A DNA stretch of 64,000 nucleotides from Clostridiales bacterium. Its GTDB lineage: Bacteria; Bacillota; Clostridia; Christensenellales; UBA1242. The DNA lies in NCBI GenBank assembly GCA_015055515.1, contig SVIC01000003.1, positions 15,435 to 79,434 of the forward strand, given 5' to 3'. Shown in pieces: positions 4,597 through 61,525 of this stretch (positions within the stretch are counted from its first letter, which is position 1; the number at the start of each line of letters is the position of its first letter). Under the pieces are notes generated by a model, which searched no databases, was not told the DNA's origin, and was given only the letters and a program-made list of their open reading frames with translations. Both the position numbers and the translations under genes were made by a program.

Positions 4597-5903
4597 AATA
4601 TTTCTCCTTGTAAATCATAATCTAATACATTTGTAATACGAATAGTATAGTATTGGCCTATATTAAGGTTATTGCCCTTTGCACAAATATATATAACAGA
4701 GTCGGACTCAGGATTATGATATTGGCTACGTGCCACATACATATCATCCTCTATACCATCAATCACAACTTCCATAGTTTTAGCTAGCATAGCATTGTTC
4801 AACGTCTTTACAACCCCATACTGAGCTTCTGATATTGCCTTTAACCTTCTATTCTTTGTAGCAGTAGGTACTTGATCTATAAAATCATATGACCTAGTGC
4901 CCTCCTCTCTACTATAGGTAAAAAATCCTACATAATTCAACTTCTGTTCGATTACAAAATTCATCAATTTATCAAAATGTTCTTTTCGTTCGCCTGGAAA
5001 ACCTAAAATAAAAGTTGTCCTTATAGCAATATCAGGAATATTGAGTCTTAACTTCTTAATAAGGTTAACAATCTTATCATAATTATTGCGCCTATTCATT
5101 TGCTTCAATATATAACTATCTACATGTTGCAGAGGGATATCTATATATTTACATACTTTCGGATTATCCCTTATTTCCGCAATCAATTCTTCTGTTATAC
5201 TCTCAGGATAGCAATATAATAATCTTATCCATTTCAAATTAGTTATCTTAGACAATCTTCTAATAAGTGTCACAATATTCGTGCCATCATTGAGATCTGT
5301 GCCATACTTTGTCACATCTTGGGCAACTAATATAATCTCCGTGGCTCCATTATCAACTAAGTTCTGCGCCTCTATCATTAGATCTGATAATGACTCACTC
5401 TTATACCTACCTCTAATGTATGGGATTTTACAATAAGAGCAGAAATTATTACATCCGTCCGAGATCTTAAGATATGCGTAATGCCTAGGTGTTGTTATCA
5501 ACCTATTATGATTGCTATAACAGCAATCGGAAGCCTTCTTATTATACAACCCGAATATCACATCTACAATTCTCTCATTGTCCTTGATATGCACAAATGC
5601 ATCCACTTCTGGCAAACTCTCTGCCAGATCGGTATACTGCATCTCATTTATACAGCCAGTAACAATTATCTTCTCTAATTTGTCACCCTTTAACTCACCG
5701 CACTCTATTATTGCTGAAATTGATTCTTCCCTTGCAGGGCGAATGAATGAGCAAGTATTAACAATTATGATATTTGCCTCGGTCGCATCAGGCTCTATTA
5801 GAAAACCGGCGGACCGAACAGCATACATCATCTTCTCTAGATCCACTCTATTCTTATCACATCCCAAACTTATAAAACCGATCTTTTTCTTAAGTATATC
5901 CAT
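4593..5903 (-). CDS. rimO: Ribosomal protein S12 methylthiotransferase RimO (MiaB-family radical SAM)
   Basis: The 436-aa protein has the N-terminal IGFISLGCDKNRVD, the radical-SAM motif CNNFCSYCKIP and a C-terminal TRAM-like region. It overlaps pgsA by 4 nt. Confidence 0.85.
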   Translation of the reverse strand: MDILKKKIGFISLGCDKNRVDLEKMMYAVRSAGFLIEPDATEANIIIVNTCSFIRPAREESISAIIECGELKGDKLEKIIVTGCINEMQYTDLAESLPEVDAFVHIKDNERIVDVIFGLYNKKASDCCYSNHNRLITTPRHYAYLKISDGCNNFCSYCKIPYIRGRYKSESLSDLMIEAQNLVDNGATEIILVAQDVTKYGTDLNDGTNIVTLIRRLSKITNLKWIRLLYCYPESITEELIAEIRDNPKVCKYIDIPLQHVDSYILKQMNRRNNYDKIVNLIKKLRLNIPDIAIRTTFILGFPGERKEHFDKLMNFVIEQKLNYVGFFTYSREEGTRSYDFIDQVPTATKNRRLKAISEAQYGVVKTLNNAMLAKTMEVVIDGIEDDMYVARSQYHNPESDSVIYICAKGNNLNIGQYYTIRITNVLDYDLQGEIL

Positions 5904-25476: not shown

Positions 25477-28400
25477 ATGGAGAAAAATATGATTAACACT
25501 AACATCAAGAAAACAACAGGTAAAAATATTATTGCAATATCGCTAAGTATAATACTTGCATTTGTATTATCGCACATAATATTTAGCACAAAAACTCTGG
25601 CAGAGAATAGCACCTACATGCCAGACTTTATTGTAGCAACAACCAATATAAGAGAAACAAACAACTATCAAAACAACGCCGTAGATATAATATACGAAGA
25701 GAACTCTGCGGGATCTTTCGTTATGTGGGCGAACGAGTATTATAACCTAAGAGACAATACTCTTAGCCAAGTACCTAACTACAAGCAAGTTATTAGCGTT
25801 GATGGAGATACAAATGTTGCTTCAATAAGTGACTACTACACCTATGATGCAGGAACGGGAAAATTTACTGGCTTGCTTGAACTTCCAGAGGCTAATAAGT
25901 GGTATAGATACGATGATAATGGCAAGCTAAGCCCAATAGGTGCTCGCCTATCAAAAGACAATCTTACTAGTGCCATTTCAATGGAAGATAGCAGAGTAGA
26001 TAGCAAAGATTCTGATGTTAGAAAAATAATTATAGATGGAAAAGATGTATATATACAAGTAGGAGAAGAAAACAAAATTTACTCAAAAGACTACTATTAT
26101 GGATATAATTATAAGTCTTTCAAATCAGAGTATAGTTATAAACCAATTACGCCATCTGATAGTGCGGAAATATCCTACACATATATCTCCGATCTAACAA
26201 CCGATCCTATATCAACAAGTGAGCACAAGTATACTTATATTTCAAATATATTTGAGAAGCATACAGACACAAGTGGCAAATTCGCATATTACAATAACTC
26301 TTGGATGAAGGTTGAATTATGTAATGCTGATGGCATAATCACCAATACAACTGATGACACATACGTAATATTAGAAAAAGACGGACAACTACCTAAGATA
26401 TGGGTGTCTGGATCAACATATTATTATAAAGATACAAATGGCGATAAAAAACAACTTGAGAGCCAACCCGAATTCTATACATATTCTATTCAAAACGGCT
26501 TATATTGCATATCCGGAACAGAATATCTATTACTAGAAAATGAGAATATAGATAGATTTGATGGAACTAAATTAACCCTAACTGGTAATGTCGAGCTAGA
26601 ACTAGATCAACTATATACCAGAGTATACATTAACGAACCATATCTAAAAATAGGCGCTAACACAGAAAAAACTGTAGAATTCGTAAAATTAGACAATACC
26701 GACCCTGCAAATATAAATTTCATATCTGGTAGCATATCGATTAACAAGCACTTATTCAGCATTTCCTATGACAATGCTAATATAATAAACTATAATGGTG
26801 TATGGCAAATAATAGAATATTGTCGTGCAGATGGAGGAAAATTATCCAACACCACAGAAAAAACTAATTATGTAATATTAGAAAAAGATAATAACAATAC
26901 ATCAGTATGGGGTGAATTGAACTCCAACAAGTATTATTACAAAGATGGTGCAAACACAAAAGAACGAACTACCAATGCCACTAACAATGCCCTTCCAACA
27001 TTATATGGCTATAAATTAAACAGTGGATTATATAGTCACAAAGACTACGAATATATTCCGCTAAAAGATGCCGTAATAACAAATATTAGTTACGATGAAA
27101 ACACATTAAAAGAAATAAAGGTTACAACTAATACTGGTAGAGAGCTAACAATCAACAACCTTTCAGATAACCTTTATACAAACAACTATTATTATGAGAT
27201 CTACAAAGCCGTATATGGCGAAGATAAGAACACAATCTTAGATTATGAATTATACAATTACGAATTAAAAGCAAGCGACAACACAAAAGGAAACTTCGAT
27301 AGTTATCAAAGCTTTATAAGTACATATTTTGCAGAAGACAACCTAGATGAATTATACTTCTTGGGCACAGACGGGGCTTATCACGAACTATTCAACACCG
27401 TATACGCTAATAGTGCTAAAGAAGTAATAACTTCTACCACTAGCGATATTGTACTAGACAACTACAAAGTACAAAGAGATCTATACAACTCTGATATTGC
27501 AACTACAGATAATCAAAATGTAGAGAATATATATCTTAGTTTTGGCGATATATACTACCCTAACATAAACGACAACAGCAAAAATGCATTTAATATCATT
27601 ATCACAGAATTGTCTGTTAATATGACATTGACTAATAGTTATTACAACGAGATACCGGTAATAATTAATGAGCCAATTAGACAAGAAAATATCAACTTAT
27701 CTAATGATGTAACCAAGCAAAATTGTTTCTGGTTCCAATATCTAGACCTTCAAAATCTAAGAACATATTCGGGATCAAACCTATCTGACACCAGAATAAT
27801 AGAACATTCTGCCGGAGAATACCAAATTGAAATAACATACAATACTTACAATATCGAGACAGGTATCAGTTCTACATCACAGAATTTCTCTTATTCGTTA
27901 ATTGTAGATGAGACAAGCAACAAAGACAGTTATCCTATTATAAATAATACTGAATATGTAGAAAAAGATAACAACTACCCTATATATACATATAACTTCC
28001 AAAGCATGAACAAGCCAGAGATAATGTTCGATGCTAGCGAATACTCGATGCAATATTCATATAACTACGATGAGTATAATACAGATTACAATTCTGCATT
28101 GAACATATTCAAAAGAGACACTGTTACAAAAGACACATTAGTAACATATGCTACTGCCACTGGAACTGAGAACACAGAGCAGAATATAAAATATTATCAA
28201 GAACATTCAATATTTACTTGGGTAGAAAGCGGATACATCAATAATATCGAAGTAAACAGAACACATTCTAGAACAAAAATACTAGCAAATGCCACTATTA
28301 TAGAAAAACCAACAAATGGTAAAATCCAAATAGTTGGCGCCACCAATGTTGATATTGACAAGGTTGCGATATTAGAATATACATATTATATCGATTCCCC

Positions 28401-31400
28401 TTCAAATGCATTCGTGAACGACAATTATTCTTCGCTGCAATTCGATAAGAAAATTGTCTCAATTGTTGGATACAGCACAGCAGAGAATACTTACTACATT
28501 TGGCACTATATAACAGATATTGAAAAATCAAAAGATGATTCTTTTGTAAGTTATAACAAAGTAATTAATGAATATATAACAAAGATATCCAAGCCAGTAA
28601 ATTATAGGTCATACGACAATATGTACAAGTTCTATAACTTAGATAAAACGCCTGCTACAGATTATGCAAAATTAGAAAAAGGTTTTGCTAGCAGAAAATA
28701 CGACTACTATTTCGATTATGAGCAGTTGGATTTCGATTATATCATAACTGATGAATTTTCCAACTTAGGTGAATACGTATTCGAAATGGGCTATGTAACA
28801 AGCACAAAATACTCACCTAGCAAAACACCTTATAACACATACAATCTGCACAATATCTCTAAAGACGTTATAGCAATTGAACCAAACTTCGATCCAAAAG
28901 GACTTGTTAATCTGCAACAAGGCACACTAAATGGAGGATATAATATATCTATATTTGGTGTAAAATCATATTTCAATAAGTACATGTCTGCGACATCAAC
29001 TACTGTACAGACCGAATTAATGCTAGAGTCAGAAAATATTTATAGTGACATGACCGCCACTATTAATTCAATTAATAACACTAATAAAATTGAACAAATG
29101 CCACAGGCAGGAACAACAATAAATAATGCGGGAACATCTATAGGAAAAGTACCTAATACCAACCAAGTACCAATTTACTTCGAATACTTATGTTCTTATG
29201 CATACACTGGAAACATTTCGAATAGCAGAATTTACAGATACCCTAGCTTCGTATACAACGATGATAATACATGCACAATCAAAAATACTAATAATTATAT
29301 CACCAGCTATTTTGATAAGAACTCAAGACCTGAAGATGATGGATATTATGAGATTATAATAGAGTATTCATATAAAAATAACGATACTAATTACGAGTCC
29401 GACAAGCAATATCAAGTATTTGCATTCGTTATAGACAACTCCTCTCCAGAGGTGGCATACGATACACTAAAAGAAACAATTGACAGCAAAGAATATAAAT
29501 ACTTAGATTGGCAAAGCATGGCATCCAACAATATAACAAACTCTATTGTTAGAGCTAATTGGAATACGCCTAATTACTTCCAATACGATATAATTCCAAC
29601 CATTACAAAGGAAAATTACTCTGGCGTATCAAGCATCTATGGATCAAGTGATAGCACTTCAACAATTAATGCTATAAGCGGAACTAATGAAGAAGTATTC
29701 ATTCATATTAATGAGACAGAGAAGATATCTCTTACAGGCAATGCAGATATTGTAAAAAATAATGGAGTAATACAATATACCGATAAAGCTGGACTAATTG
29801 CAGAAAAGTATTATATAACAAAGTATGACAATGCACATTTGACCAAGGTACCTGTATTCAAGCTAATAGTAGATCAGAACGCAAATCTTGACACAATACT
29901 AGAACAAAGCAAGAAAGAGTATTATCAAACAAGAATATTGAATAATACACTATATCCATCAGATATGTACAACGCTAAGATTGTGGATATTATTAACACT
30001 ATTATCCAGAGTGGAACATCAATTAGTTTTGAATTTATAGGATACAAATGGCAATTCATGATATACCCTACTTCGACACATCTAGATGAAATTAATAAAA
30101 TACAATCTAGTGGTAGCATATGGGGAAGCGGAAACTACTTATTAAAACTAACATATGGTAGCAGTGCAACATCTAACATAACTAGTAGGTTTGTTATAGA
30201 TACACTACCTATATCAAATGTCGTAGCTAGAAGTGTTATGTTATATAACAGCGGAAATATAATATCCAAAGGTTTTAATGGAAATTGCAACTTTGCAAGC
30301 GGATCGAACAACTTAATAAATGAGCCATTTACATTAATATACGATTCTAAAACAAGTGGAGCTGATATCACTACTTATTATAGAAAGATTTCATTCAAAT
30401 CCACTACAATAGATAAAGATTATGACAGACTGTATCTAGCAGACACCACCGTAGGTGTACTTACAGATATAGAGTTAACTGCAAGCGAAGATGCTCGATG
30501 GAAAAAATATACATATAATTATAACTACGGAGAGGCAGGATCAACAGTTCCTACAGGAAACGAATTCAATCCTGATTCTACATCACTATATGTATTCTAC
30601 TTAGAAGATCGTGCGGGCAACAAAGCTAATTATTATGTATTGTATGACAACTCTACACCTAAATACAGTGTGGAGTTAAGTGAAAAAGATAAAACATCAA
30701 ACAACTTCAATCTATACAATATTATCACAGACAATACAACACTATTCTGGGGAAATTATAAGGCAATTGAAGTATCTGGAAGCCTAGATATAGGTTATAT
30801 TATTAATAGAGCAAATCATATCAACTATCAACCTACAGCAATTGAAATGGCACTGAAAGATATCGTTGCAAAAAGCACTAATAACACTTATCTAGGAGCA
30901 AGCTACAAAACTTTTAGAAAAGATAATAACAAGTGGGAAGAAATAAGCAATGCAGACTATTCATCGGGAGATAAATGCTTTATATTAATACCTTTATCTA
31001 ACACAACATTCAACTATTCTCAAACAAACGCCGATGATAAGACAGAGAAGCAATTCATATTCAATATGCTTACTGGCAAAATTAACCAAACCATACTATC
31101 CCCTACAGCATTAGATTTAGCAATTGCAAATGGCTTAGTGGCAAACAACGCAACAGATACTGAAAAAGAGGCAGCAAGAAACCTAATAAAACGTAGCCCT
31201 CAAGGCACATATGGATTCTATGGCGAGATTCAATATGATTACGTAATAGAAGATATTCTAGGAAATAGCGATGGTGGCTTCTTATGGATGAACAACGACT
31301 TGACAGTAGCAATGGCATGGATGACTAATGCAAAAACTGACAAAGAATTGAGCAACAATGATGATCTGGGCGTATTTGCAGCAACAGATCTATCTAGCGC

Positions 31401-34400
31401 ATACGCAACTAGCCAAGTATACTTCACTTATTTAACTAGTATAGATAGTTCTATACCTACTGCAGAATTCGATTATAAATATTATCCATTTGAAGATTTA
31501 AGTAAAACCGGATTCTATAACAATTATAAAATAAAAAATATTTCATACAATAGTTCGAAAAGCTGTTATGAGATAATATTTGTAGATGAAAAGGACAACC
31601 AAATTACACATAACTACAGTGCTTTGTCTACTAACAACTATAATGCTGATGGAGATGCAGTAAATGAACCAAATAGTACTTATCCATTTACTATTTCCCC
31701 TACAACAGCATCTAACAATGGTTGGAACAAAATAACAGCAACTTCTAATTACAATGTTGCAGGAGACCCAAATAGAAAGGTGTCCAATCTAATTAACGAT
31801 ATATCTGATACATCTATTAAATATTCTGGAGCTGGTCTATATGTATTTAGAAGAGTATATGTAGATTATGTAGATGCTACACAATATAGCAATGGCATAA
31901 CAATTGTCAATAAAGCAAAAGCTGAAGAACTGGATAAAGATAGTGCTGTAAGATACTATGTATATTATATTGACAGAAATTCTATAATAGATGTAACTAA
32001 CATGATAGGCTCTGATATAACACTAACATATGGTAACTATATTCATGCTGTAACAAACGACAATGAGAATAACTTAAGCATTGATAATAACTATGCCAAT
32101 GTATATGGCTATGACAGCATATCAATAGATGCTGTACAGCAATCCAGCACATCAAATAGTGTTCAGACTTATGTATCTAGCGATAGTACCAACAAGATAT
32201 ATATCTCTCTAGATATGCCTATGGATAAATACAATCAGCCTAGAGCAGTAGCATTTGCAAAAGAAACTGATTTTGCATTGTCTATGACCGAAGCTGATAA
32301 AGCAAATACTGAATCTATGCTACGTAAGTTCTACAACCTATCTGAGAATCAGAATATTACTGAAGCACAAATAAATGAATTTATTAACAACTTCCTTGGC
32401 AAATACATGTTCGATAATTACAACGGTTTTGCAAACGGAACATATAATAAAAATTTCCAATTGAACGTAACCTTAAAAAATGGAAACAATGCGATCATGG
32501 AAAATAATATTATCACAGAGAATAATTCCATATACTTCAAACAGTATTCTGCAACAACATTACAGACCTCAACTGTTTCATCTATTGATAGACAAAACTT
32601 TACTAATTATTTAAGAAATGATATTACTTCAATCATCCTTAATGATCCTTCCGGCGATGGTTACAACTTTGCTATATCAGACAGCTCATTATTTACAAGA
32701 AATAACGTTATAATATCTGAAGCAAACTCATTGAATATTAACAACATTAATATCGCACCTATGAAGCCTACAGGATCTGTAATAGGTAAAAACCCAAATA
32801 CTAAATATCTAACTGATACAGAGTCTGAGAACTATGTACAAAACTTGTTCCAAAATGATCAGTTAAAGAGTATGAAATATTATGTTGCTTCGGCAGATAG
32901 CATATACCCTAATTCTAACAACAGTACCTTAATATTCTTAATAGATAATGATATATTAACTAACCTTACAGCAACAACAAACCCTTACAATATTGTAATT
33001 AATAAATTTAGTGAAAATGGTACTAAAAGCACAATATTTACTAGTAGCCTAACATACGAGATAGTTAATGGCGAAGTTGTTCCAAAATTCACTGCCAATA
33101 ATGCAAATGCCTTCATTAGTAATGCAACGATAGATAATAAGGCTACAAAATGGGCAATAGTAGTATTTGACAAGACTGCAAAGAATGAACAATATAAGAA
33201 TATATTATCAAATGCTGATGACAATGCAACATACCAGATTACTATCCAGCACTATGGTAAAAAAGAAGATTATATAGACAAAGATGTCAAACAGAACATA
33301 GCATTCAGCGATACTCAAGAGATAACAATTGATCACATAAAACCAATAATTAACCAAATAAAATTAATGGAGCAAGACAAATTTATCTCAAAGAATTTTG
33401 CAAAAATAAAATCATCAATTGAAGCTCAGAATAACAATCTTGTATATAATGATATACAATCATACTACAACGACTTAATTAGTAGAATTTCTAGTGGTAC
33501 AATCACCAAGATTGGAGCACAAAAATATTTGAAAAATGTATATGATATATACCTTGAATGCTACAAGAACTTAATGGGTAAAGAAGATAATTTCTTAAAA
33601 ACATTTACCGATCAATTCGGAGAAAAAGTAAATTACTGGAATAACTATTATTTCACAGTAGATGATAACTTCGAATTCATAAGTGGACTTCCTAGCCTTA
33701 ACAATGAAGATGGTAACGGAATGGGACTGGATTGTTATAACAATATTTATTTTAGAAAAATATCAGATCTGACTAAATACAAATATTCAATAACAACAGA
33801 TGACTTTACATCAACTACTAGTTCAGATATTACTGGTCACAGCATATTCTATGATAACATTGCAGAGACCTATGACAGCAGCAATAACCCAACTATAGAA
33901 TCTGACACAACCTTCTATAAAATAAGCCACACAAACAACAAAAATTATAAATTATTTGGTGAATCTATCAAAGATCCTGGTTATTATGAAATAATAGAAC
34001 GTGATGAGGCTGGAAACTATAGCGTATACCTAGTACACTATAATAATAACGGTAACGAATATAAATACACTTATTCTAAGTTATTTAATGACAAAACAGA
34101 AGATGAAATCAACCTAAGCTCAACAAAAGTTAATGAGATTCTAGGTACTGGGCTGGCATTGTCTAATGCGAATACGGATAATGTCGCCGATATGTTCCGT
34201 GCAGAAATAGCCTATACATTCACGACTATAAAAGAAGATGGCACTGTTGATAGAGTATACAACAATACATCCTCACCTATTTATATTTATTCTACAATGA
34301 TGAACAACGCTGTAGATATATATTATGATCGTAAGAATGACAATATGATAGACATAGACTCTGATTTATTGCAGTCTATCACTGGAATTGTAGCACTTGA

Positions 34401-37242
34401 AAACACAAGTTTAGGTAATGAGATAATCAACAAAGCATTATCAAGAATAAAAGAAATACTGATGTATATATCTAATACTTACACTGATATAGCTCTTGAC
34501 TTTGAATACAGTATTAATATATATGACAAGGTATATGGTAATTATGTTATATCTTACAAATGCCCAGGAAAGCAGTTAGAGTTGGATATAAACAAAGGCG
34601 ATTATTCATTCAATGTTACAATACCTAACAACGAAGTAGGAAGAGCTACCAAGATTGTAAGCTTTAAGGCACGATACTCCAATAGTTCTGCCCCTATACA
34701 GCGTGACAAAAATGGCAACGAGATTCCTGACACTTCTAATAACAAACTTCCATTAAATTCTACTACTTATACATTTAACTATGCAGATGGATCTCAAACT
34801 CAAGGATCTGCTATCATTATTGAGACTATAGACAATTTCGGCAGAAACAAAATATATTATATTACTAACAAAAATGATAGGTTATATTATACCGAAATGA
34901 ACACTATAAAACACTATAATGATACTTATACAGATGATGAGATCAAGATAGTATATAATAGTGATCTATATAACGCAGTAATCATAGAGCAAGTAGATGA
35001 ATCTAATCAACTAACTATTACAACAAGATTAAATGCAAATAATAGTTATCCTATAGCAAATAATGATTATTTGAGATACGATGTCACAGATCTACCTACT
35101 TGGACTAGAAAAGATGACAAAGGAAATATAATATATACAGTATCTAGCGACAAATTATTAAATGAGACTGGTTATATTACTCTAACAATTAAGCAAAACA
35201 TAGATAAAAAATCGAAATTTATTATTTTATTCTTGGACAAGAGCACAATAACAAGTGAAACAACCATAAATGAGTTATACAAAAGTTATGTATCTTTCGT
35301 TAGCAAGCCTGAAGGAATATTATATAACGATGATACGAAGGTAACAATGTATACTTATCTTCCAGAAATCAAATTAATTAATAATAGCAATAGAGTAATT
35401 ACTACTTCTAAAACTATAAAAGATCAAAAAGAACTACTACTATTCATAGAACAATTAAAATACAGATTAGAATATAGTCAAGAGATATTGTTTAATCCAA
35501 GAATATCTATTGCAAAGAACAATATTCAATATGCTGTCATTCCTGAAGAATTAAGTGAAAACGTAAGCCTTGGCAATGGTACATACAGGCTTGTAATATC
35601 TAATGACCTAGGATATTATAGTGAAATAAATTTCAAGATAGAAATCCAAGAAAATATAGCAGACTATGCATTATATATTAATAATAATTTGATGCAAAAA
35701 TCTACATATATTAATACAGATGACGGTAAAATAGTGTATCACTATTATACTACCCTATTGGATGCAACAACTAAGCCGAAGATTAATATAATAACAAATT
35801 CTAACAACAACATTGCTTGCACAAAAATAGAAGATGCTGTAGTAGAAAACAGCAATGATTTGTATGAAACATATAAGGTACACAAGAAAGATAATCCTGA
35901 TGTAATAATAGAATATTTCACTATATATTATTTAGAGAAAGACAAATACAACTTTGTCGATGATAACGGTGGACAAATTGTAAAGATTAATAATAAGAAA
36001 TCATTCAATACCGCACAAGATATAGCATCTGTAAGCAGTTCTAAGAATGACAACAAACTATATATAATCTTTGCCAATACCATAAACGGAAACAACGATC
36101 ATACACAAGGCAATACTATATCACTAACCTATTATTACAATAATGCTTCGACTAAGACAGAAGAAATAAAAATAAATAAGTTAAACAAGTTCATAGAAGA
36201 TGGCAAAACTTATTATTACTATGAAATATCTGAAACTGGTTTACATAAATTTGTAGTAAGTGACCTTGCTGGACAAAGATTAAAATCTGGCAACAGAGAT
36301 TACTTCAATATAACTTTGATTAATAGCATAATATATGAAATCAAAGTTGATGAAGATAAATATATTCAAAATCTACAAAATTACATAACTAACAACGAAG
36401 TTGTTATAAGATTGCTAGATCAAGTAGGCAACACTAACCTATATGATATTATATATGATCAAATAAGAATAACTAGAAATGGTGAATTGTTAACAGACAT
36501 AAAACAAACAACTAAAAATGTATATACTTTCACTACTCCTGGATCATATGAAATACAAGTAAGTGCTAGTGATTCAAGCAATCCTAAGCCTATAACTCAT
36601 TCTATATACTTTACTATAGTAAATCCGAACATAGCATACAGTTCGTATACAATATCATCTGCAAAAGGCTACACAATTAAATCGGTAACAAAGAGATTAA
36701 ATAACACAGAGAATTCCAAGCCTACACCTATAAACGCTTTCAACAATTCTAATTCGTTACTAATTAGTTGTGCCGAGCATGGTGCTGGATATTATACCAT
36801 AACGGTTACAAAATATCTAGAAAGCATTAAGTCTGAAAAAGAATTTTCATTCAATGTATGGCTAAATGATAGAACTGAATCTAGTATAATTATAGCATCT
36901 ATTCCATTCGGAACAGAGACAACAGATACTATTACTATACGATATAACGCATCAAATATATATAATAATATAGGTGAATCTTTCATTAAGATAAATGGAA
37001 ATATTATAGACACTATTACAAAAGATAGCACCTCTGAAACTTCTACCTATAATATAACTGAAAAAGGTGTATATTGGGTAACAATAGAATCTGCTAATGG
37101 TCAAGTTATAGCTAGCTATAAATTAACCAAGAATGAACCACTAAATGCAACTGCCCAGATAATAATAATTGTTGTTGTTGTAGCAGTAATTGCTCTAGTA
37201 GTTATATTCATAATCTTGAGAAAGAAGACTAAGTTCAGATAA
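25477..37242 (+). CDS. Giant (3,921 aa) N/Y/T/I/D-rich cell-surface protein with an N-terminal signal peptide and a C-terminal TM anchor; function unknown
   Basis: A single uninterrupted 11,766-nt ORF. The second ATG at 25489 has the better RBS (GGAG 6 nt upstream). The signal peptide is IIAISLSIILAFVLSHIIFSTKTLA/EN. The C-terminus is AQIIIIVVVVAVIALVVIFIIL-RKKTKFR. Recurrent beta-sandwich-like module ends are present (G-x-Y-x-I/V ... D-x-AGN). I recognised no enzyme, LPXTG, SLH or YD/RHS motif. Confidence 0.85.
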   Translation: MEKNMINTNIKKTTGKNIIAISLSIILAFVLSHIIFSTKTLAENSTYMPDFIVATTNIRETNNYQNNAVDIIYEENSAGSFVMWANEYYNLRDNTLSQVPNYKQVISVDGDTNVASISDYYTYDAGTGKFTGLLELPEANKWYRYDDNGKLSPIGARLSKDNLTSAISMEDSRVDSKDSDVRKIIIDGKDVYIQVGEENKIYSKDYYYGYNYKSFKSEYSYKPITPSDSAEISYTYISDLTTDPISTSEHKYTYISNIFEKHTDTSGKFAYYNNSWMKVELCNADGIITNTTDDTYVILEKDGQLPKIWVSGSTYYYKDTNGDKKQLESQPEFYTYSIQNGLYCISGTEYLLLENENIDRFDGTKLTLTGNVELELDQLYTRVYINEPYLKIGANTEKTVEFVKLDNTDPANINFISGSISINKHLFSISYDNANIINYNGVWQIIEYCRADGGKLSNTTEKTNYVILEKDNNNTSVWGELNSNKYYYKDGANTKERTTNATNNALPTLYGYKLNSGLYSHKDYEYIPLKDAVITNISYDENTLKEIKVTTNTGRELTINNLSDNLYTNNYYYEIYKAVYGEDKNTILDYELYNYELKASDNTKGNFDSYQSFISTYFAEDNLDELYFLGTDGAYHELFNTVYANSAKEVITSTTSDIVLDNYKVQRDLYNSDIATTDNQNVENIYLSFGDIYYPNINDNSKNAFNIIITELSVNMTLTNSYYNEIPVIINEPIRQENINLSNDVTKQNCFWFQYLDLQNLRTYSGSNLSDTRIIEHSAGEYQIEITYNTYNIETGISSTSQNFSYSLIVDETSNKDSYPIINNTEYVEKDNNYPIYTYNFQSMNKPEIMFDASEYSMQYSYNYDEYNTDYNSALNIFKRDTVTKDTLVTYATATGTENTEQNIKYYQEHSIFTWVESGYINNIEVNRTHSRTKILANATIIEKPTNGKIQIVGATNVDIDKVAILEYTYYIDSPSNAFVNDNYSSLQFDKKIVSIVGYSTAENTYYIWHYITDIEKSKDDSFVSYNKVINEYITKISKPVNYRSYDNMYKFYNLDKTPATDYAKLEKGFASRKYDYYFDYEQLDFDYIITDEFSNLGEYVFEMGYVTSTKYSPSKTPYNTYNLHNISKDVIAIEPNFDPKGLVNLQQGTLNGGYNISIFGVKSYFNKYMSATSTTVQTELMLESENIYSDMTATINSINNTNKIEQMPQAGTTINNAGTSIGKVPNTNQVPIYFEYLCSYAYTGNISNSRIYRYPSFVYNDDNTCTIKNTNNYITSYFDKNSRPEDDGYYEIIIEYSYKNNDTNYESDKQYQVFAFVIDNSSPEVAYDTLKETIDSKEYKYLDWQSMASNNITNSIVRANWNTPNYFQYDIIPTITKENYSGVSSIYGSSDSTSTINAISGTNEEVFIHINETEKISLTGNADIVKNNGVIQYTDKAGLIAEKYYITKYDNAHLTKVPVFKLIVDQNANLDTILEQSKKEYYQTRILNNTLYPSDMYNAKIVDIINTIIQSGTSISFEFIGYKWQFMIYPTSTHLDEINKIQSSGSIWGSGNYLLKLTYGSSATSNITSRFVIDTLPISNVVARSVMLYNSGNIISKGFNGNCNFASGSNNLINEPFTLIYDSKTSGADITTYYRKISFKSTTIDKDYDRLYLADTTVGVLTDIELTASEDARWKKYTYNYNYGEAGSTVPTGNEFNPDSTSLYVFYLEDRAGNKANYYVLYDNSTPKYSVELSEKDKTSNNFNLYNIITDNTTLFWGNYKAIEVSGSLDIGYIINRANHINYQPTAIEMALKDIVAKSTNNTYLGASYKTFRKDNNKWEEISNADYSSGDKCFILIPLSNTTFNYSQTNADDKTEKQFIFNMLTGKINQTILSPTALDLAIANGLVANNATDTEKEAARNLIKRSPQGTYGFYGEIQYDYVIEDILGNSDGGFLWMNNDLTVAMAWMTNAKTDKELSNNDDLGVFAATDLSSAYATSQVYFTYLTSIDSSIPTAEFDYKYYPFEDLSKTGFYNNYKIKNISYNSSKSCYEIIFVDEKDNQITHNYSALSTNNYNADGDAVNEPNSTYPFTISPTTASNNGWNKITATSNYNVAGDPNRKVSNLINDISDTSIKYSGAGLYVFRRVYVDYVDATQYSNGITIVNKAKAEELDKDSAVRYYVYYIDRNSIIDVTNMIGSDITLTYGNYIHAVTNDNENNLSIDNNYANVYGYDSISIDAVQQSSTSNSVQTYVSSDSTNKIYISLDMPMDKYNQPRAVAFAKETDFALSMTEADKANTESMLRKFYNLSENQNITEAQINEFINNFLGKYMFDNYNGFANGTYNKNFQLNVTLKNGNNAIMENNIITENNSIYFKQYSATTLQTSTVSSIDRQNFTNYLRNDITSIILNDPSGDGYNFAISDSSLFTRNNVIISEANSLNINNINIAPMKPTGSVIGKNPNTKYLTDTESENYVQNLFQNDQLKSMKYYVASADSIYPNSNNSTLIFLIDNDILTNLTATTNPYNIVINKFSENGTKSTIFTSSLTYEIVNGEVVPKFTANNANAFISNATIDNKATKWAIVVFDKTAKNEQYKNILSNADDNATYQITIQHYGKKEDYIDKDVKQNIAFSDTQEITIDHIKPIINQIKLMEQDKFISKNFAKIKSSIEAQNNNLVYNDIQSYYNDLISRISSGTITKIGAQKYLKNVYDIYLECYKNLMGKEDNFLKTFTDQFGEKVNYWNNYYFTVDDNFEFISGLPSLNNEDGNGMGLDCYNNIYFRKISDLTKYKYSITTDDFTSTTSSDITGHSIFYDNIAETYDSSNNPTIESDTTFYKISHTNNKNYKLFGESIKDPGYYEIIERDEAGNYSVYLVHYNNNGNEYKYTYSKLFNDKTEDEINLSSTKVNEILGTGLALSNANTDNVADMFRAEIAYTFTTIKEDGTVDRVYNNTSSPIYIYSTMMNNAVDIYYDRKNDNMIDIDSDLLQSITGIVALENTSLGNEIINKALSRIKEILMYISNTYTDIALDFEYSINIYDKVYGNYVISYKCPGKQLELDINKGDYSFNVTIPNNEVGRATKIVSFKARYSNSSAPIQRDKNGNEIPDTSNNKLPLNSTTYTFNYADGSQTQGSAIIIETIDNFGRNKIYYITNKNDRLYYTEMNTIKHYNDTYTDDEIKIVYNSDLYNAVIIEQVDESNQLTITTRLNANNSYPIANNDYLRYDVTDLPTWTRKDDKGNIIYTVSSDKLLNETGYITLTIKQNIDKKSKFIILFLDKSTITSETTINELYKSYVSFVSKPEGILYNDDTKVTMYTYLPEIKLINNSNRVITTSKTIKDQKELLLFIEQLKYRLEYSQEILFNPRISIAKNNIQYAVIPEELSENVSLGNGTYRLVISNDLGYYSEINFKIEIQENIADYALYINNNLMQKSTYINTDDGKIVYHYYTTLLDATTKPKINIITNSNNNIACTKIEDAVVENSNDLYETYKVHKKDNPDVIIEYFTIYYLEKDKYNFVDDNGGQIVKINNKKSFNTAQDIASVSSSKNDNKLYIIFANTINGNNDHTQGNTISLTYYYNNASTKTEEIKINKLNKFIEDGKTYYYYEISETGLHKFVVSDLAGQRLKSGNRDYFNITLINSIIYEIKVDEDKYIQNLQNYITNNEVVIRLLDQVGNTNLYDIIYDQIRITRNGELLTDIKQTTKNVYTFTTPGSYEIQVSASDSSNPKPITHSIYFTIVNPNIAYSSYTISSAKGYTIKSVTKRLNNTENSKPTPINAFNNSNSLLISCAEHGAGYYTITVTKYLESIKSEKEFSFNVWLNDRTESSIIIASIPFGTETTDTITIRYNASNIYNNIGESFIKINGNIIDTITKDSTSETSTYNITEKGVYWVTIESANGQVIASYKLTKNEPLNATAQIIIIVVVVAVIALVVIFIILRKKTKFR

Positions 37243-56175: not shown

Positions 56176-57309
56176 ATGGATCAAAAGGAATATGAACTAC
56201 AACTTAAAAGCCTAGAAAATATGGGTATTCACACCCTTAGGACTTTTGCCAGAGAGTGTGGTGTAAAGGCACCAACTACCCTAAAAAAAGAAGAACTAAT
56301 AGATCTAATAATGAAAATAAAAAAGGGAGAAATAGAGCCAGTAATTAGCAAAATGGGAAGAAAACCAAAAACACTTCCTGATTTTTCTTTTGCCACTTCA
56401 TCCAACATGGACTCTGGATTTCTATCTCTACATTCTCCTACAATATTGAGTAGCAATACACCTTGTCAAGTATTAGAATGCCAAGTAAAATTCAATGAAT
56501 TAAACAATCCAATTTTTAGATTAATAGAGAAAACTGGCAGAGTCGTGGACATACCAGTATTGCCATCTTTGCTTACTAAGCACAATCTTAAGAAAGACGA
56601 TTTAGTCACAGCAGAGATGAAGACATCTCCTGATGGATATAGTTATATAATTGGAGACATTATAACAATTAACGGCATCGATGCAACCAAATATCATAGC
56701 GATTTGTTTTATAATCTTGACAATGTACCTAACTTAATAGACTATTTAAGAATAGAAAACTTTGAGAAACATGAAGCTATAATGTATCAACCTAAGATAC
56801 TAAAAGGTAAATCTTGCTTCTATTACTATAAAGATGGCAAAAATTTGGCAAACTATATAACAGATTTTGCTAACGATATAAAAGAAGACAAGTTGCATAT
56901 AGTTATATTAAACGCCTCACACACACCTACTCCAAATATTAAAGATACTACTATATACAACATAGATTATAACAAGTCGTACGAAGAGATCTTCAAGGAT
57001 ATAATTGTTGCTAGAGAACATGTGAAAAATCTGTTCATAAGCAACCAAAAGGTCCTATTTATAATCAGTGAAATCGATGAATTGTTCAAGATCATAAATT
57101 ACAATATCACCAATACAATAAGTGATGATGTAGCACCAGACAGCCTAACCGAAGTAAGAAAACTGGTTAATTTATCTAAATACATAAGCAAACAACAGAA
57201 TTTAAGTGTTGTAACATTCTCTTCGTTTGCCACTGGCAAAAATTACAGAGATATATTAGTCTCTAACATCATACAGTATTTATACGAAGTCAAATTAGAA
57301 AGAAAATAA
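56176..57309 (+). CDS. Rho-like protein: Rho_N and Rho RNA-binding-like domains plus a RecA-like domain with degenerate Walker motifs, C-terminally shortened
   Basis: The N-terminus LENMGIHTLRTFARECGVKAPTTLKKEELIDLIMKI fits the Rho_N pattern. DIPVLPSLLTKHNLKKDDLVTAEMKTSPDGYSYIIGDIITINGID parallels E. coli Rho [43 protein letters not shown]. The P-loop position reads YYKDGKN (Rho: PPKAGKT). The Walker B position reads HIVILNASHTP (Rho: LMVLLIDERPE). Confidence 0.6.
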   Translation: MDQKEYELQLKSLENMGIHTLRTFARECGVKAPTTLKKEELIDLIMKIKKGEIEPVISKMGRKPKTLPDFSFATSSNMDSGFLSLHSPTILSSNTPCQVLECQVKFNELNNPIFRLIEKTGRVVDIPVLPSLLTKHNLKKDDLVTAEMKTSPDGYSYIIGDIITINGIDATKYHSDLFYNLDNVPNLIDYLRIENFEKHEAIMYQPKILKGKSCFYYYKDGKNLANYITDFANDIKEDKLHIVILNASHTPTPNIKDTTIYNIDYNKSYEEIFKDIIVAREHVKNLFISNQKVLFIISEIDELFKIINYNITNTISDDVAPDSLTEVRKLVNLSKYISKQQNLSVVTFSSFATGKNYRDILVSNIIQYLYEVKLERK

Positions 57310-57310
57310 A

Positions 57311-57340
57311 TAAGAAGATTGTACAAAAGCAATCTTCTTA
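57311..57340 (+). other. Strong hairpin without a proper U-tract between the Rho-like gene and the permease-like gene
   Basis: An 11-bp stem TAAGAAGATTG/CAATCTTCTTA with an 8-nt loop is followed by ATACTTTTAT. Confidence 0.6.
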
Positions 57341-57361
57341 ATACTTTTATAGAGGTACTCA

Positions 57362-58864
57362 ATGTTTATCAATTTAGGAAAAAAATTAAAGGAATCATTC
57401 TTATCCGTTATTCCTATATCCATTATTGTTCTCATATTTTCTATTACCCTATGCCCTCTTGATGTAGACACATATCTGTCTTTTGGCATAAGTGTAGTGC
57501 TATTAATTATAGGAATGGCGTTATTTACCATGGGAACAGATATATCGATGTCACAAATGGGAGAAAGTATAGGCAAAAGCTTATGCAAATCAAAAAAATT
57601 ATCTTTGATGTTAATTTGTTCAGCCTTTATTGGTTTTATTATTACATTTGCCGAACCCGATCTGGCCGTACTAGCCAAACAAATTAGTGACATGGGAATA
57701 CTGAAGCAAGAATATTTATTCATATCAGTAGTATCTATTGGCGTGGGCGTTTTTCTATTATTTGCAATACTTAAAGTAGTATTTAGATGGAAAATGTCTT
57801 ACATACTTGCAATTGGTTATTCTGTATTATTTATATTCTGTTTCCTAGTACCAGATTATATGATACCTATTGCATTTGATTCTGGCAGTGTAACCACAGG
57901 ACCAATATCTGTGCCGTTCTTAATATCTTTTGGACTAGGAATAGCATCAATCACATCTAGCAAGGATGATGACAATGCACTAGGATACATTGCCCTATCA
58001 TCGCTCGGACCAATTATCGCTGTAATGACACTAGGATTATTCTTGCCTAGGGATATCAATATAATACAACAAAGTACAGAAATAACTCACTCAGGCATTA
58101 ATGCAATACTAACAAACCTTACAGGATATCTACTGGATGTAGCAATCACCCTACTTCCCATAGTCATCATATTTGTTATATTCCAGATATTTATGTTAAA
58201 ATTGTCTAAAACAACAATCAAAAAAATTATCATTGGATTGATCTATACATATGTAGGAGTTGTATTGTTTTTAACAGGTGTCAATGCAGGATTCTTACCA
58301 ATTGCATCGAAACTGGGCAGTGTTATAGCAAGTGGCGATTTCAGTTGGATACTAATACCTTTAAGCATAGTATTGGGATACTTCATAATAGCGGCAGAGC
58401 CAGCAGTACACGTGTTAAAGAAACAAGTAGAAGAAGTAACAAATGGTGCAATAAAACAAAAAACTATTCAGACATTTGTGTCAATTGGTGTAGCAATATC
58501 AGTACTTCTTGCAATGTTAAAAACATTATATGATATTAACCTATTATACATATTGTTGCCTATATACATAATGGCGATTGTGTTATCATTTATTAATGGC
58601 AACCTATTTGTATCAATAGCTTTTGATGCAGGCGGAACAGCTACTGGAGCGATGGCTGTATCATTCATACTACCATTCATATCTGGAGTAGCAAGCGTAA
58701 TAGGCAACAACACAACCGGCTTCGGAACAATAGCATTAATCGCCGCAATGCCAATACTTACTCTACAAGTGCTAGGCTTAATGTACACAATAGCAACAAA
58801 GAAAAAAGACAGAAAGAAACGAAAGTCCAACAAAATCCATGTGGAAATTATCGAATTCGATTAA
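57362..58864 (+). CDS. Internally duplicated polytopic membrane protein (DUF1538-like permease)
   Basis: The 500-aa protein has two homologous halves visible by eye: FAEPDLAVLAKQ / AAEPAVHVLKKQ, and FDSGSVTTGPISVPFLISFGLGIAS / FDAGGTATGAMAVSFILPFISGVAS. The family name is from memory of this AEP/DxGxxxTG pattern. Confidence 0.7.
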   Translation: MFINLGKKLKESFLSVIPISIIVLIFSITLCPLDVDTYLSFGISVVLLIIGMALFTMGTDISMSQMGESIGKSLCKSKKLSLMLICSAFIGFIITFAEPDLAVLAKQISDMGILKQEYLFISVVSIGVGVFLLFAILKVVFRWKMSYILAIGYSVLFIFCFLVPDYMIPIAFDSGSVTTGPISVPFLISFGLGIASITSSKDDDNALGYIALSSLGPIIAVMTLGLFLPRDINIIQQSTEITHSGINAILTNLTGYLLDVAITLLPIVIIFVIFQIFMLKLSKTTIKKIIIGLIYTYVGVVLFLTGVNAGFLPIASKLGSVIASGDFSWILIPLSIVLGYFIIAAEPAVHVLKKQVEEVTNGAIKQKTIQTFVSIGVAISVLLAMLKTLYDINLLYILLPIYIMAIVLSFINGNLFVSIAFDAGGTATGAMAVSFILPFISGVASVIGNNTTGFGTIALIAAMPILTLQVLGLMYTIATKKKDRKKRKSNKIHVEIIEFD

Positions 58865-58874
58865 GGAGTGCGAC

Positions 58875-59219
58875 ATGAAGAACAAACATATTAACGCACC
58901 GTTCGAGATGCTAATAGCAATAGTAGAACGTGGCAAATCTAACAAAGTATCTGAAATATTGACTGCTCATGACTGCAACTATACCCTTACAACCATAGGT
59001 GAAGGAACTGCACAATCAGAAGTATCCGACATCTTCGGATTTGGAATTGTAGAAAGAGATGTTGTATGGGCTCTAGTAAATCCAATAATGTCTCAAAAAA
59101 TATTAGATGCATTAGATAAAACTTTAGAATTAAAACAACCTAGCAGAGGAATTGCTATGTGCATACCAATCAACGCCGCAACCAACCTAATGCTAGACTC
59201 GTTAGGAATTAATTATTAA
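58875..59219 (+). CDS. P-II-like signal-transduction protein, paralog 1
   Basis: The start is at ATG 58875 (AAGGAG RBS; the track's 58839 overlaps the upstream gene). The beta-alpha-beta pattern MLIAIVERGKSNKVSEIL...TIGEG... and the C-terminal SRGIAMCIPINA resemble GlnB (GDGKIFVLPVEE). Confidence 0.6.
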   Translation: MKNKHINAPFEMLIAIVERGKSNKVSEILTAHDCNYTLTTIGEGTAQSEVSDIFGFGIVERDVVWALVNPIMSQKILDALDKTLELKQPSRGIAMCIPINAATNLMLDSLGINY

Positions 59220-59229
59220 GGAGTATATA

Positions 59230-59565
59230 ATGGAAGAGAAGAATTATGATTTAATTATAACAATTGTTAATAAAGGTTATTCCGACTACGTAGTGCAAGC
59301 ATCAAGAGAAGCAGGAGCGACGGGCGGAACTATTATAAATGCATTAAGTTCTAACAGTAACGATACAGAGAAATTCCTGGGTATAACCATACAACCAGAA
59401 AAAGAAATAGTACTAACTGTAGTGGAATCAACTACTAAGAACAAAATAATGAAGGCAATAGTAGAGAATACAAACCTTGACACTATTGGAAGAGGCATGT
59501 GTTTTTCACTGCCAATATCCAAATTAACCGGCATCACCGCCCTAAATTCTAAAAACAAAAAATAA
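59230..59565 (+). CDS. P-II-like signal-transduction protein, paralog 2
   Basis: The 111-aa protein has LIITIVNKGYSDYVVQASREAGATGGTII and GRGMCFSLPISK, which match the P-II fold pattern (GlnB: EAIIKPFKLDDVKEAL..GITGMTV and GDGKIFVLPVEE). It has an AAGGAG RBS. Confidence 0.65.
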   Translation: MEEKNYDLIITIVNKGYSDYVVQASREAGATGGTIINALSSNSNDTEKFLGITIQPEKEIVLTVVESTTKNKIMKAIVENTNLDTIGRGMCFSLPISKLTGITALNSKNKK

Positions 59566-59580
59566 AAATATTTTAATATT

Positions 59581-59630
59581 AAAAATAAGGCCTTTTTATA
59601 CAAAAAATTATAAAAAGACCTTATTTTTTT
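59581..59630 (+). terminator. Terminator after the P-II pair
   Basis: A long AT-rich hairpin (arms 59584..59600 / 59609..59625, one C-A mismatch, 8-nt loop) runs into T7. Confidence 0.6.
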
Positions 59631-59749: not shown

Positions 59750-61525
59750 ATGAAAAATAGAAAAACAAAAGAAAAGAAAAATACATATTATTTTTTCAAA
59801 TCACTAGGCTATATTAAGCCATACAAAAGTAAAGCAATCATGTGTATTATTAGTTGTGCATTATTTGCAGGACTAAGTGTTTTTGTACCAATATATACAG
59901 AAAAGACACTGACTGCTTTTACAAGTGGCGATGGAACTGGACTACTAATTAGTGCTAGCCTACTACTATTATTCCAAGTTCTTAGTTCTCTATCTCACCT
60001 ACTACTATGGGGAAACGCTGCAGACAAATTAAAAGCAAGCATATCAAAAGATATAAGATATAACACACTAGATAGTATCTTAAAATTAAAGACTAAGAAT
60101 TTTGACTTATACGGAAGTGGCAGATTGGTCCAAGTAATATCTTCTGACACTAATTCGTTAGCATCAATCTACAACTCTCTAGTAGATGTATTCATGTCCA
60201 TCCTTAGCAATTTCGCCATTGTAATATACATATTTGCCAGCAACGTATTCTTAGGGTTATATTGTATTGTTGAATTCGCAGTAGTTGCATTAATATTCAG
60301 AATTAGATTAAAAATTAGACTAAAAGACCAAATTGAGCAAAAGAAAACAATGGATAAAAATACCAGTCTTGTAATGGAAACAATCAAAGGTGTAAGAGAT
60401 ATAAAGAACTACAATATACACGATTCTGTAATGGAAAAAGCAAACGAGTCACTTACCGCCCTACAAAACATTGAAGGAAAATTTGGTAGTAAACAATATA
60501 AATTATATAGAGCATCAATTATACTAAAAAATATTATGGCATTCCTATTTATTCCACTTGCACTATTCTTAATACGATTAGAAATGGCGACATTTGCAGT
60601 AGCATTCACTATATTTGTATTCCGTAATTCAATAACATCTCTTATAGATTGGTTCATGATGAGCTGGGAATACTTCAAAGATGGAGGAATGTATGCAAAA
60701 AGAATATTCGATGTTCTAAATGGATATGAAGAAGGATTTGAGAAATTCCCTAAGAAAGACAATTTCAAAGCTTTGCCAGAGAACATTGATATTGATTTTC
60801 AAAACTTAAACTTTTCATACAACGGAGTAGATAAAGTGCTAAACGACTTCACTCTGCACGTAGAACATGGCACAAAGATAGCCTTTGTTAGTGCTAGTGG
60901 CGGTGGCAAAAGTACGCTATTAAAACTAATTAATAAGACATACGATGTAGATAGAGGACAAATATTTATTGGCGGACAAGATATATGTGACTTCTCAAAA
61001 GAAACCCTAAGGAATATAATAACTATTGTGCCTCAAGAGCCGTACATATTTAATTTCTCCATATTAGACAACCTAAAAATAATTAAGCCAGACGCAACAA
61101 AAGAAGAAATAGAAGATGCTTGCAAAAAAGCCCAAATACATGACTACATAATGTCTCTACCTAAGAAATATAACACAATGCTGGGCGAAGGCGGATCTAG
61201 ATTCTCTGGCGGACAAAAACAAAGATTGTCTATCGCCAGAGCATTATTAAAAGACAGTCCAATACTAATATTCGACGAAGCCACTAGTGCCCTTGATAAC
61301 GAAAACCAAAATGCAGTAAAAGAAGTCGTTGACAATATTGGCAACGATAAAATTGTAATCACTGTTGCGCATAGACTATCAACCATTGTCGATGCAGACA
61401 AGATATATTTTATGAAAAACGGTCAAATTGTCGCTGGAGGCACTCATAGAGAAATGTTAAAGACTTGCGAAGAATACAAGTGCTTATATCGATATGAGAA
61501 TGCAGTAGCAGAAGATAATGAGTAA
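59750..61525 (+). CDS. ABC exporter half-transporter (N-terminal 6-TM domain plus C-terminal ATPase; MsbA/multidrug type)
   Basis: The 591-aa protein has Walker A SASGGGKST, signature FSGGQKQRLSIARAL and Walker B ILIFDEATSALD. Confidence 0.9.
   Translation: MKNRKTKEKKNTYYFFKSLGYIKPYKSKAIMCIISCALFAGLSVFVPIYTEKTLTAFTSGDGTGLLISASLLLLFQVLSSLSHLLLWGNAADKLKASISKDIRYNTLDSILKLKTKNFDLYGSGRLVQVISSDTNSLASIYNSLVDVFMSILSNFAIVIYIFASNVFLGLYCIVEFAVVALIFRIRLKIRLKDQIEQKKTMDKNTSLVMETIKGVRDIKNYNIHDSVMEKANESLTALQNIEGKFGSKQYKLYRASIILKNIMAFLFIPLALFLIRLEMATFAVAFTIFVFRNSITSLIDWFMMSWEYFKDGGMYAKRIFDVLNGYEEGFEKFPKKDNFKALPENIDIDFQNLNFSYNGVDKVLNDFTLHVEHGTKIAFVSASGGGKSTLLKLINKTYDVDRGQIFIGGQDICDFSKETLRNIITIVPQEPYIFNFSILDNLKIIKPDATKEEIEDACKKAQIHDYIMSLPKKYNTMLGEGGSRFSGGQKQRLSIARALLKDSPILIFDEATSALDNENQNAVKEVVDNIGNDKIVITVAHRLSTIVDADKIYFMKNGQIVAGGTHREMLKTCEEYKCLYRYENAVAEDNE

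Follow-up and report, generated by a model that had tools for sequence, protein, structure and literature searches.

When two P-II-like genes stand in tandem behind a transporter gene, do they encode two separate sensors or the parts of one regulator, and what might the transporter carry? This question is raised by a three-gene locus in a 64,000-nucleotide (nt) stretch of DNA from a gut-type Clostridiales bacterium (contig SVIC01000003.1), here called the window, whose numbering is used for all coordinates. The window matches a metagenome-assembled Clostridiales bacterium, with 100% identity for protein P0001. Three open reading frames (ORFs), all on the forward strand between 57362 and 59565, were confirmed at their positions: a 500-residue permease with the domain of unknown function DUF1538 (57362–58864), P-II-1 with 114 residues (58875–59219), and P-II-2 with 111 residues (59230–59565). 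The GC content of the region is ≈0.31 to 0.33. The three genes form a self-contained operon, and P-II-1 and P-II-2 probably act together as a dedicated switch of the transporter. Taken as a whole, we lean toward reading the locus as a secondary transporter with its own operon-encoded P-II-type regulator. An earlier note on this DNA had described a 500-residue membrane protein made of two homologous halves, described as DUF1538-like, that is followed at gaps of 10 nt by two small P-II genes with strong ribosome-binding sites. Each part of that description stands, including the ATG at 58875 as the start of P-II-1, and the supporting results are given below.

Linkage of DUF1538 to a two-domain P-II partner

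We scanned one genome per species with an alignment of the permease as the query, which returned 80 loci, all of them from Clostridia. A P-II gene lies immediately downstream of the permease gene and on the same strand in each of the 79 uncut loci; the 80th locus ends where its contig ends. All-against-all clustering of the flanking ORFs of these 80 loci yielded no other conserved neighbor. An ATP-binding cassette (ABC) exporter family, considered as a conserved third gene, occurs in 14 of the 80 loci but at scattered positions, and it was set aside. Annotated RefSeq records give the same picture, with P-II directly 3′ of DUF1538 in all five that we inspected. A fused DUF1538 gene precedes a 222- to 224-residue "P-II family nitrogen regulator" in Paraclostridium, Peptoclostridium, and Vescimonas, and two split DUF1538 genes precede a single P-II protein of 112 to 122 residues in the alphaproteobacteria Methylocystis and Chelativorans. 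The DUF1538/P-II module covers at least two phyla, and its linkage is near-universal, a stronger co-conservation of the three genes than the earlier note had expected. The literature that we searched contained no link between DUF1538, PF07556, or UmpAB and P-II.

The comparison of loci also bears on the relationship between the two P-II genes. In 73 of the 79 loci, the P-II partner is one protein, typically of 220 to 280 residues, with two P-II domains, of which the N-terminal one resembles P-II-1 and the C-terminal one resembles P-II-2. The split, two-gene form is found in only six loci (L001, L008, L019, L024, L034, and L078), in the same order. Splitting is characteristic of the clade to which the window belongs because the relatives with permeases 56 to 75% identical to that of the window retain the split pair. 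P-II-1 has its ortholog in the N-terminal domain of the tandem protein; the orthologs of P-II-2 are that protein's C-terminal domain and the single P-II protein beside the split alphaproteobacterial DUF1538 pairs, which in Methylocystis and Chelativorans carries the motifs of the C-domain subfamily. These domains have distinct conserved signatures, G.GTA.S..LD.LGL...EK ... PG.GIAF in 227 N-domains and GA.GGTV..ARG.G.....KF.G..I..EKE ... FSLPV in 189 C-domains; the conserved loop of P-II-1 itself reads G42-E-G-T-A-x-S...D-I-F-G-F-G-I-V.

A P-II-1 profile searched against 1.84 billion representative proteins (clusters at 50% identity) produced 1419 matches at E ≤ 0.001, the best 150 of which are mostly two-stretch proteins of ≈215 to 280 residues. 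The tandem nature of these proteins has been overlooked in annotation because Pfam recognizes only one of the two domains. The Pfam P-II family detects only the C-terminal domain (for example, in P0257, P0260, P0262, and P0282), RefSeq names the proteins plainly "P-II family nitrogen regulator," and the N-terminal P-II domain is effectively unannotated. Our literature search turned up no description of tandem P-II proteins.

In the window, the gaps between permease and P-II-1 and between P-II-1 and P-II-2 are exactly 10 nt each. The ribosome-binding site of P-II-1, read from the sequence as AAGGAG (58863–58868) with a 6-nt spacer, overlaps the stop codon of the permease gene, and translation of P-II-1 would therefore be coupled to that of the permease. 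The P-II-2 site, likewise AAGGAG (59218–59223), overlaps the P-II-1 stop codon, and the layout of this second junction, TAAGGAG-N6-ATG, matches that of the first. A mechanical ORF list placed the P-II-1 start at 58839; we rejected it for the ATG at 58875 on the basis of the ribosome-binding site position and the starts of homologues, all 11 of which are 114 residues long with the same starting methionine.

Relatives fuse the two domains in a fixed order, and the window couples their translation; on both grounds, P-II-1 and P-II-2 appear to function as one 1:1 unit. We read the two genes as a split tandem P-II, and the fusion favors one heteromeric regulator over two independent sensors; a heteromer of P-II-1 and P-II-2 thus seems reasonably probable. 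The earlier note had offered either a hetero-oligomeric regulator or dual-signal control, and the fusion in 73 of 79 loci speaks for the former and against the latter.

Both small proteins adopt the P-II fold, P-II-2 being a divergent relative of PF00543, the Pfam P-II family. With this fold and the co-conservation described above, the earlier note passes both of its own refutation tests. They share 25% identity in pairwise alignment (E = 3e-6), and their family profiles match with an hhalign probability of 98.2% (E = 6e-14). P-II-2 scores 22.9 bits against PF00543 where the cut-off is 25 (E = 1.1e-4; profile positions 3–96 of 102), and most of its homologues at 42 to 62% identity carry PF00543, several of them under the name "P-II family nitrogen regulator." When compared with the Protein Data Bank (PDB), a P-II-2 family profile of 50 homologues matched NifI (9p1x; E = 7.6e-7) and then GlnK and GlnB, with E-values ranging to 7e-3. 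P-II-1 alone matched nothing in Pfam or the PDB. A broader P-II-1 profile, built from 35 single-domain relatives with zero P-II-2 sequences among them, matched NifI in the PDB over its full length (E = 0.0049), and nine of the 35 relatives match Pfam P-II weakly (best E = 1e-4).

The AlphaFold2 model of P-II-1 has a predicted local distance difference test (pLDDT) score of 80, its input alignment having contained P-II-2 relatives, which qualifies it as a test of the fold. It shows the ferredoxin-like core of P-II proteins in β-α-β-β-α-β order, with a T-loop between β2 and β3, with strands at residues 10–18, 37–42, 61–68, and 92–99 and helices at residues 22–31 and 73–84. Foldseek matched this model to GlnK1, plant and cyanobacterial PII, and PstA with a probability of 1.00 and template modeling (TM) scores of 0.5 to 0.7.

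Repeats and topology of the permease

The permease matches Pfam DUF1538 (PF07556) in two stretches, with 401.2 bits against a gathering cut-off of 22.6 (E = 9.9e-121), and it has more than 7000 homologues. Its halves are 33% identical across 180 residues (E = 2e-21), in an alignment that spans the AEPD/AEPA and FDSG..TTG/FDAGG.ATG motifs. Repeat 1 (57362–58051; residues 1–230) comprises seven helices and is UmpA-like, with residues 5–227 forming the best stretch for the NCBIfam UmpA model. Repeat 2 (58097–58795; residues 246–478) also comprises seven helices and is UmpB-like. In total, 14 transmembrane helices are predicted, with both termini cytoplasmic. In the AlphaFold2 model (pLDDT 83.3; predicted TM score 0.82), the breaks in the helices coincide exactly with the invariant AEPD/AEPA and FDSG/FDAGG motifs, which in repeat 1 are A97-E-P-D100 and F172-D-S-G...T-T-G-P and in repeat 2 are A345-E-P-A and F421-D-A-G-G. 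The membrane-embedded acidic residues of these motifs, Glu98, Asp100, Asp173, Glu346, and Asp422, are invariant in the permease alignment (A3).

Counts of lysine plus arginine in the loops of 27 aligned sequences place the N terminus inside, followed by seven helices, an acidic linker outside, seven further helices, and a strongly basic C terminus inside. By these counts and the model, repeat 1 would begin inside and end outside; repeat 2, with the opposite loop loads, would begin outside and end inside. The load is 0.1 for loop L1-2 of repeat 1 versus 3.8 for its counterpart L1′-2′ and 3.1 for L2-3 versus 0.7 for L2′-3′. Since loops that correspond between the two repeats are opposite in charge, the repeats are most likely inverted, and we take the permease most likely to be a 7+7 helix inverted repeat on the basis of this charge bias. 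Split UmpA/UmpB pairs would, by the same reasoning, be antiparallel heterodimers. No sequence match to the permease was found in the PDB, and Foldseek comparison of its model with the PDB returned nothing better than an E-value of 0.048 or a TM score of 0.23.

The permease ends in a conserved tail, V-E-I-I-E-F-D in the window (58841–58861), which combines an acidic run with [IV][IV][DE][LF]. This motif is present in 62 of the 80 Clostridia loci versus 13% of shuffled tails, and Phe499 within it is nearly invariant in the permease alignment. The last 10 residues of the permease are modeled with a pLDDT of only ≈53, and the motif is missing in Peptostreptococcales and Alphaproteobacteria, though these retain the P-II partner. 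The tail may serve as a docking motif.

Some permease homologues, of 605 to 640 residues, carry a C-terminal extension of ≈100 to 135 residues without a P-II domain. The five extensions that we read are of low complexity and rich in lysine, asparagine, serine, and glutamate; they follow the conserved (V/M)(E/D)F(N/D)W motif, and four of the five end in GGE(E/N). Permease–P-II fusions had been considered as evidence of contact and were discarded, as the homologues of 600 to 680 residues carry no P-II domain and the five extensions are low-complexity tails.

Possible substrate and proposed control of the transporter

On the matter of substrate, the earlier note had stated that none is known to be assigned to this family, a statement that is out of date. 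UmpA and UmpB of Halomonas zhaodongensis were reported in 2017 to form a Na+(Li+,K+)/H+ antiporter (PMC5484666), and NCBIfam holds models for both. The pair emerged from antiporter-deficient E. coli that had been screened for gain of function and, with no P-II protein present, exchanged Na+(Li+,K+) for H+ in a pH-dependent manner in vesicles of E. coli KNabc (PMC5484666). UmpA and UmpB are the only DUF1538 members that have been assayed. Against their equivalog models NF041627 and NF041628, the window permease scores 145.3 bits versus 490 and 111.3 bits versus 500, respectively, and judged by these scores it is a homologue of UmpA/UmpB and not an equivalog.

By homology to UmpAB, we tentatively suggest that the permease exchanges a monovalent cation (Na+, Li+, K+) for H+, and its invariant membrane-embedded acidic residues fit cation or proton binding. 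DUF1538 also figures, beside cation transporters, among the machine-learning features that predict optimal growth pH (PMC13255231). In three loci with permeases 56 to 57% identical to that of the window (L086–L088), the module adjoins a gene of the Na+/Ca2+ exchanger family and a P-type cation ATPase gene. These neighbors and the growth-pH listing are weak hints that point to cation homeostasis.

The same architecture might instead carry another substrate, such as a small metabolite, an inorganic anion, ammonium, or a species like bicarbonate; the P-II pair would then report the corresponding metabolic state, in the manner of GlnK and SbtB. The well-studied pairs of P-II and transporter, AmtB-GlnK and SbtA-SbtB, all serve nitrogen or carbon supply and not salt; the permease falls far under the UmpA/UmpB equivalog cut-offs; the family is very abundant in nonhalophilic gut anaerobes; and UmpAB was discovered in a screen that selected for gain of function in an antiporter-deficient host. 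We regard this alternative as a serious rival, if a slightly less probable one than cation exchange. Against it, the five invariant acidic residues suit cation or proton binding, the sole experimental datum is cation/H+ antiport (PMC5484666), and no conserved gene of nitrogen or carbon metabolism lies nearby.

Whichever substrate is carried, the linkage and the precedents of AmtB-GlnK and SbtA-SbtB make it likely that the P-II pair acts on the permease. A regulatory role fits because UmpAB alone sufficed for antiport in E. coli, P-II thus not being required for transport. In the mechanism that we propose, the two seven-helix repeats would lie oppositely oriented in the membrane, where their acidic AEPD/AEPA and FDSG/FDAGG motifs, on broken helices, would meet to form an ion- or substrate-binding site, and the permease would exchange a monovalent cation (Na+, Li+, or K+) for H+. 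Translational coupling would provide equal amounts of P-II-1 and P-II-2, which could combine into one mixed P-II complex. This complex would dock at the cytoplasmic face of the transporter and switch it, most likely off, according to the small molecule that it has bound.

Several observations weigh against this proposal. The substrate was assigned in a single study, done in a heterologous host on a split proteobacterial pair that is only distantly related. At Rfam gathering thresholds, the whole window and 12 related loci, those whose upstream spacers are longest, contain no riboswitch that might give a clue to the substrate; the search returned only tRNAs, a 6S RNA, and one T-box, which was dismissed as a leader clue because it is that of a different gene, on the other strand. 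Nor did the flanking ORFs of the 80 loci include a conserved metabolic neighbor that hints at a substrate.

Other points concern the P-II pair itself. In an alignment with a hand-entered E. coli GlnB sequence, Lys58, Gly87, and Gly89 of the ATP and 2-oxoglutarate site are kept, whereas the ATP contacts Lys90, Arg101, and Arg103, the GlnK plug residue Arg47, and the modification (uridylylation) site Tyr51 are not conserved. The span from β2 through the T-loop to β3 is 5 to 6 residues shorter than in this GlnB sequence. Judged by their residues, both proteins are P-II-like with a modified ligand site and are not canonical GlnB/GlnK, so neither the ligand nor a loop-insertion plug, the literal AmtB-GlnK mechanism, can be assumed for them. 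P-II-2 in the clade of the window also lacks the (A/G)RGxG motif and reads NALSSNS in its place, given which one subunit may be ligand-blind. Finally, a 1:1 ratio of two P-II types cannot be accommodated in one classical trimer; two linked rings or two mixed trimers are possibilities for the assembly.

The question of assembly leads to a second alternative, in which P-II-1 and P-II-2 each form a homotrimer with a signal of its own and control the transporter independently. In favor of this, the two share only 25% identity and have dissimilar loop motifs (GEGTAxS...DIFGFG versus NALSSNS...KFLG), and three tandem chains could in principle build two stacked homotrimeric rings, one per domain type, which would be compatible with separate ligand sites. 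However, the fixed-order fusion in 73 of 79 loci enforces 1:1 co-localization of the two domains, as does translational coupling in the window, and the alphaproteobacterial modules manage with a single P-II protein, which indicates that two signals are not intrinsic to the system. We therefore consider two independent regulators improbable and retain the mixed complex as the preferred form. Least probable of all is that the P-II proteins do not regulate the permease but are co-expressed signaling proteins with another target or stable structural subunits for assembly: although it is common for a P-II protein to have more than one target, the canonical plug residues are absent here, and the conserved permease tail could hold a permanent partner, the strict adjacency across Bacillota and Alphaproteobacteria without a third conserved gene argues against another target, and the activity of UmpAB in E. 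coli without P-II argues against an obligatory structural role.

Operon boundaries, flanking genes, and known systems

Upstream of the permease gene, a 12-bp terminator-like hairpin (57311–57340, forward strand; fold ΔG −16.3 kcal/mol, z −4.9) probably terminates the preceding gene, which encodes a Rho_N-domain protein and ends at 57309, and marks the left edge of the module. Only 21 nt separate this hairpin from the permease ATG, and no σ70-like promoter fits within them (57311–57361 inspected). The permease ribosome-binding site, read from the sequence as AGAGG (57351–57355), stands 6 nt before the ATG, and a second weak hairpin in 57311–57361 could pair with it. In a relative whose permease is 75% identical (L084), a 117-nt spacer (4884–5000 of that locus) contains a terminator and, after it, a clear TTGACA-N17-TATATA promoter. 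At the other end, the operon closes with an intrinsic terminator (59581–59628, forward strand), a hairpin with ΔG −15.9 kcal/mol and z −4.9 followed by a U-run.

The upstream gene (56176–57309, forward strand) encodes a 377-residue protein whose sole recognizable part is the Rho_N domain at residues 13–47. It scores far under the Rho equivalog cut-offs, and its gene is kept directly upstream of the permease in close relatives. Downstream, an MsbA-like ABC exporter of 591 residues (59750–61525, forward strand) lies between the operon and dnaC/dnaB-like genes. We ruled it out as part of the module, as a terminator lies in between and the exporter is missing at the syntenic site in the two relatives with 75% identical permeases (L084 and L085), where the replication genes come right after P-II-2. 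The presence of the exporter gene therefore varies by lineage, through either insertion or loss. Elsewhere in the window, a single ORF of 3921 residues (25477–37242, forward strand) with no Pfam family at E ≤ 0.001 occupies most of a 14-kb stretch of unusual composition, with an AT skew of +0.19 to +0.22 and a GC content of 0.29 to 0.33.

Transporters paired with P-II proteins are a well-established concept, and the DUF1538/P-II gene pair can already be seen in RefSeq annotation; the DUF1538/P-II operon thus extends a known theme and does not open a new one. What is new here is the tandem/split relation of the P-II genes, the invariable P-II partner, and the predicted inverted 7+7 topology of the permease. 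Clostridia of the gut and rumen very commonly carry DUF1538 permeases, and the operon provides a concrete, testable model of how dominant gut anaerobes might control a transporter of ions or solutes after translation.

The RefSeq pairs, such as WP_021431977/WP_021431978 of Paraclostridium bifermentans, represent the same module, with permeases in the Clostridia records 34 to 40% identical to that of the window. Their regulator is one tandem protein of 222 to 224 residues, whereas in the window's clade (permeases at least 56% identical) it is split into 114 and 111 residues. UmpAB belongs to the same Pfam family; its two units correspond in the same order to repeats 1 and 2 of the permease, each has seven predicted helices, and the AEP and (F/Y/V)D(S/A)G motifs are common to both systems. 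In Halomonas, a halophile, the units are two separate polypeptides of a heterodimer, whereas in the low-GC anaerobic Clostridia host a single 500-residue chain holds both repeats. The UmpAB paper names no P-II partner, and its cloned fragment stopped at umpB (PMC5484666).

The NifI1-NifI2 system of methanogens likewise has adjacent P-II paralogue genes, the products of which form one heteromeric complex (PDB 9p1x; bioRxiv 10.1101/2025.09.09.675011), and among PDB entries it is this one that the family profiles of P-II-1 and P-II-2 both match best by sequence. NifI acts on the nitrogenase NifDK as a 2:1 heterotrimer that has kept its ADP/ATP and 2-oxoglutarate residues (bioRxiv 10.1101/2025.09.09.675011). 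In the window module, by contrast, the partner is a transporter, a 1:1 ratio is implied by the fusion in relatives, and most of the residues for ADP/ATP and 2-oxoglutarate are gone. A more speculative joint reading, to which we give limited credence, is that DUF1538-linked P-II proteins constitute a second, far more widespread class of obligately heteromeric P-II, with diverged domains in a 1:1 ratio that would sense a different ligand after loss of the ATP/2-oxoglutarate site and would gate a 7+7 inverted-repeat transporter without a solved relative.

As in AmtB-GlnK and SbtA-SbtB, a transporter gene is followed in one operon by a gene for a protein of the P-II fold, and the linkage is kept across lineages. 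The window transporter differs in that it comes from an unrelated family with a predicted fold for which the PDB offers no neighbor, and the regulator is a two-domain or two-gene P-II rather than a single homotrimer-forming protein, in which Arg47, Tyr51, Lys90, Arg101, and Arg103 of GlnK (by the hand-entered GlnB sequence) are not conserved. AmtB-GlnK and SbtA-SbtB are the closest known systems by working principle, and NifI1,2 is the closest for the two-paralogue aspect.

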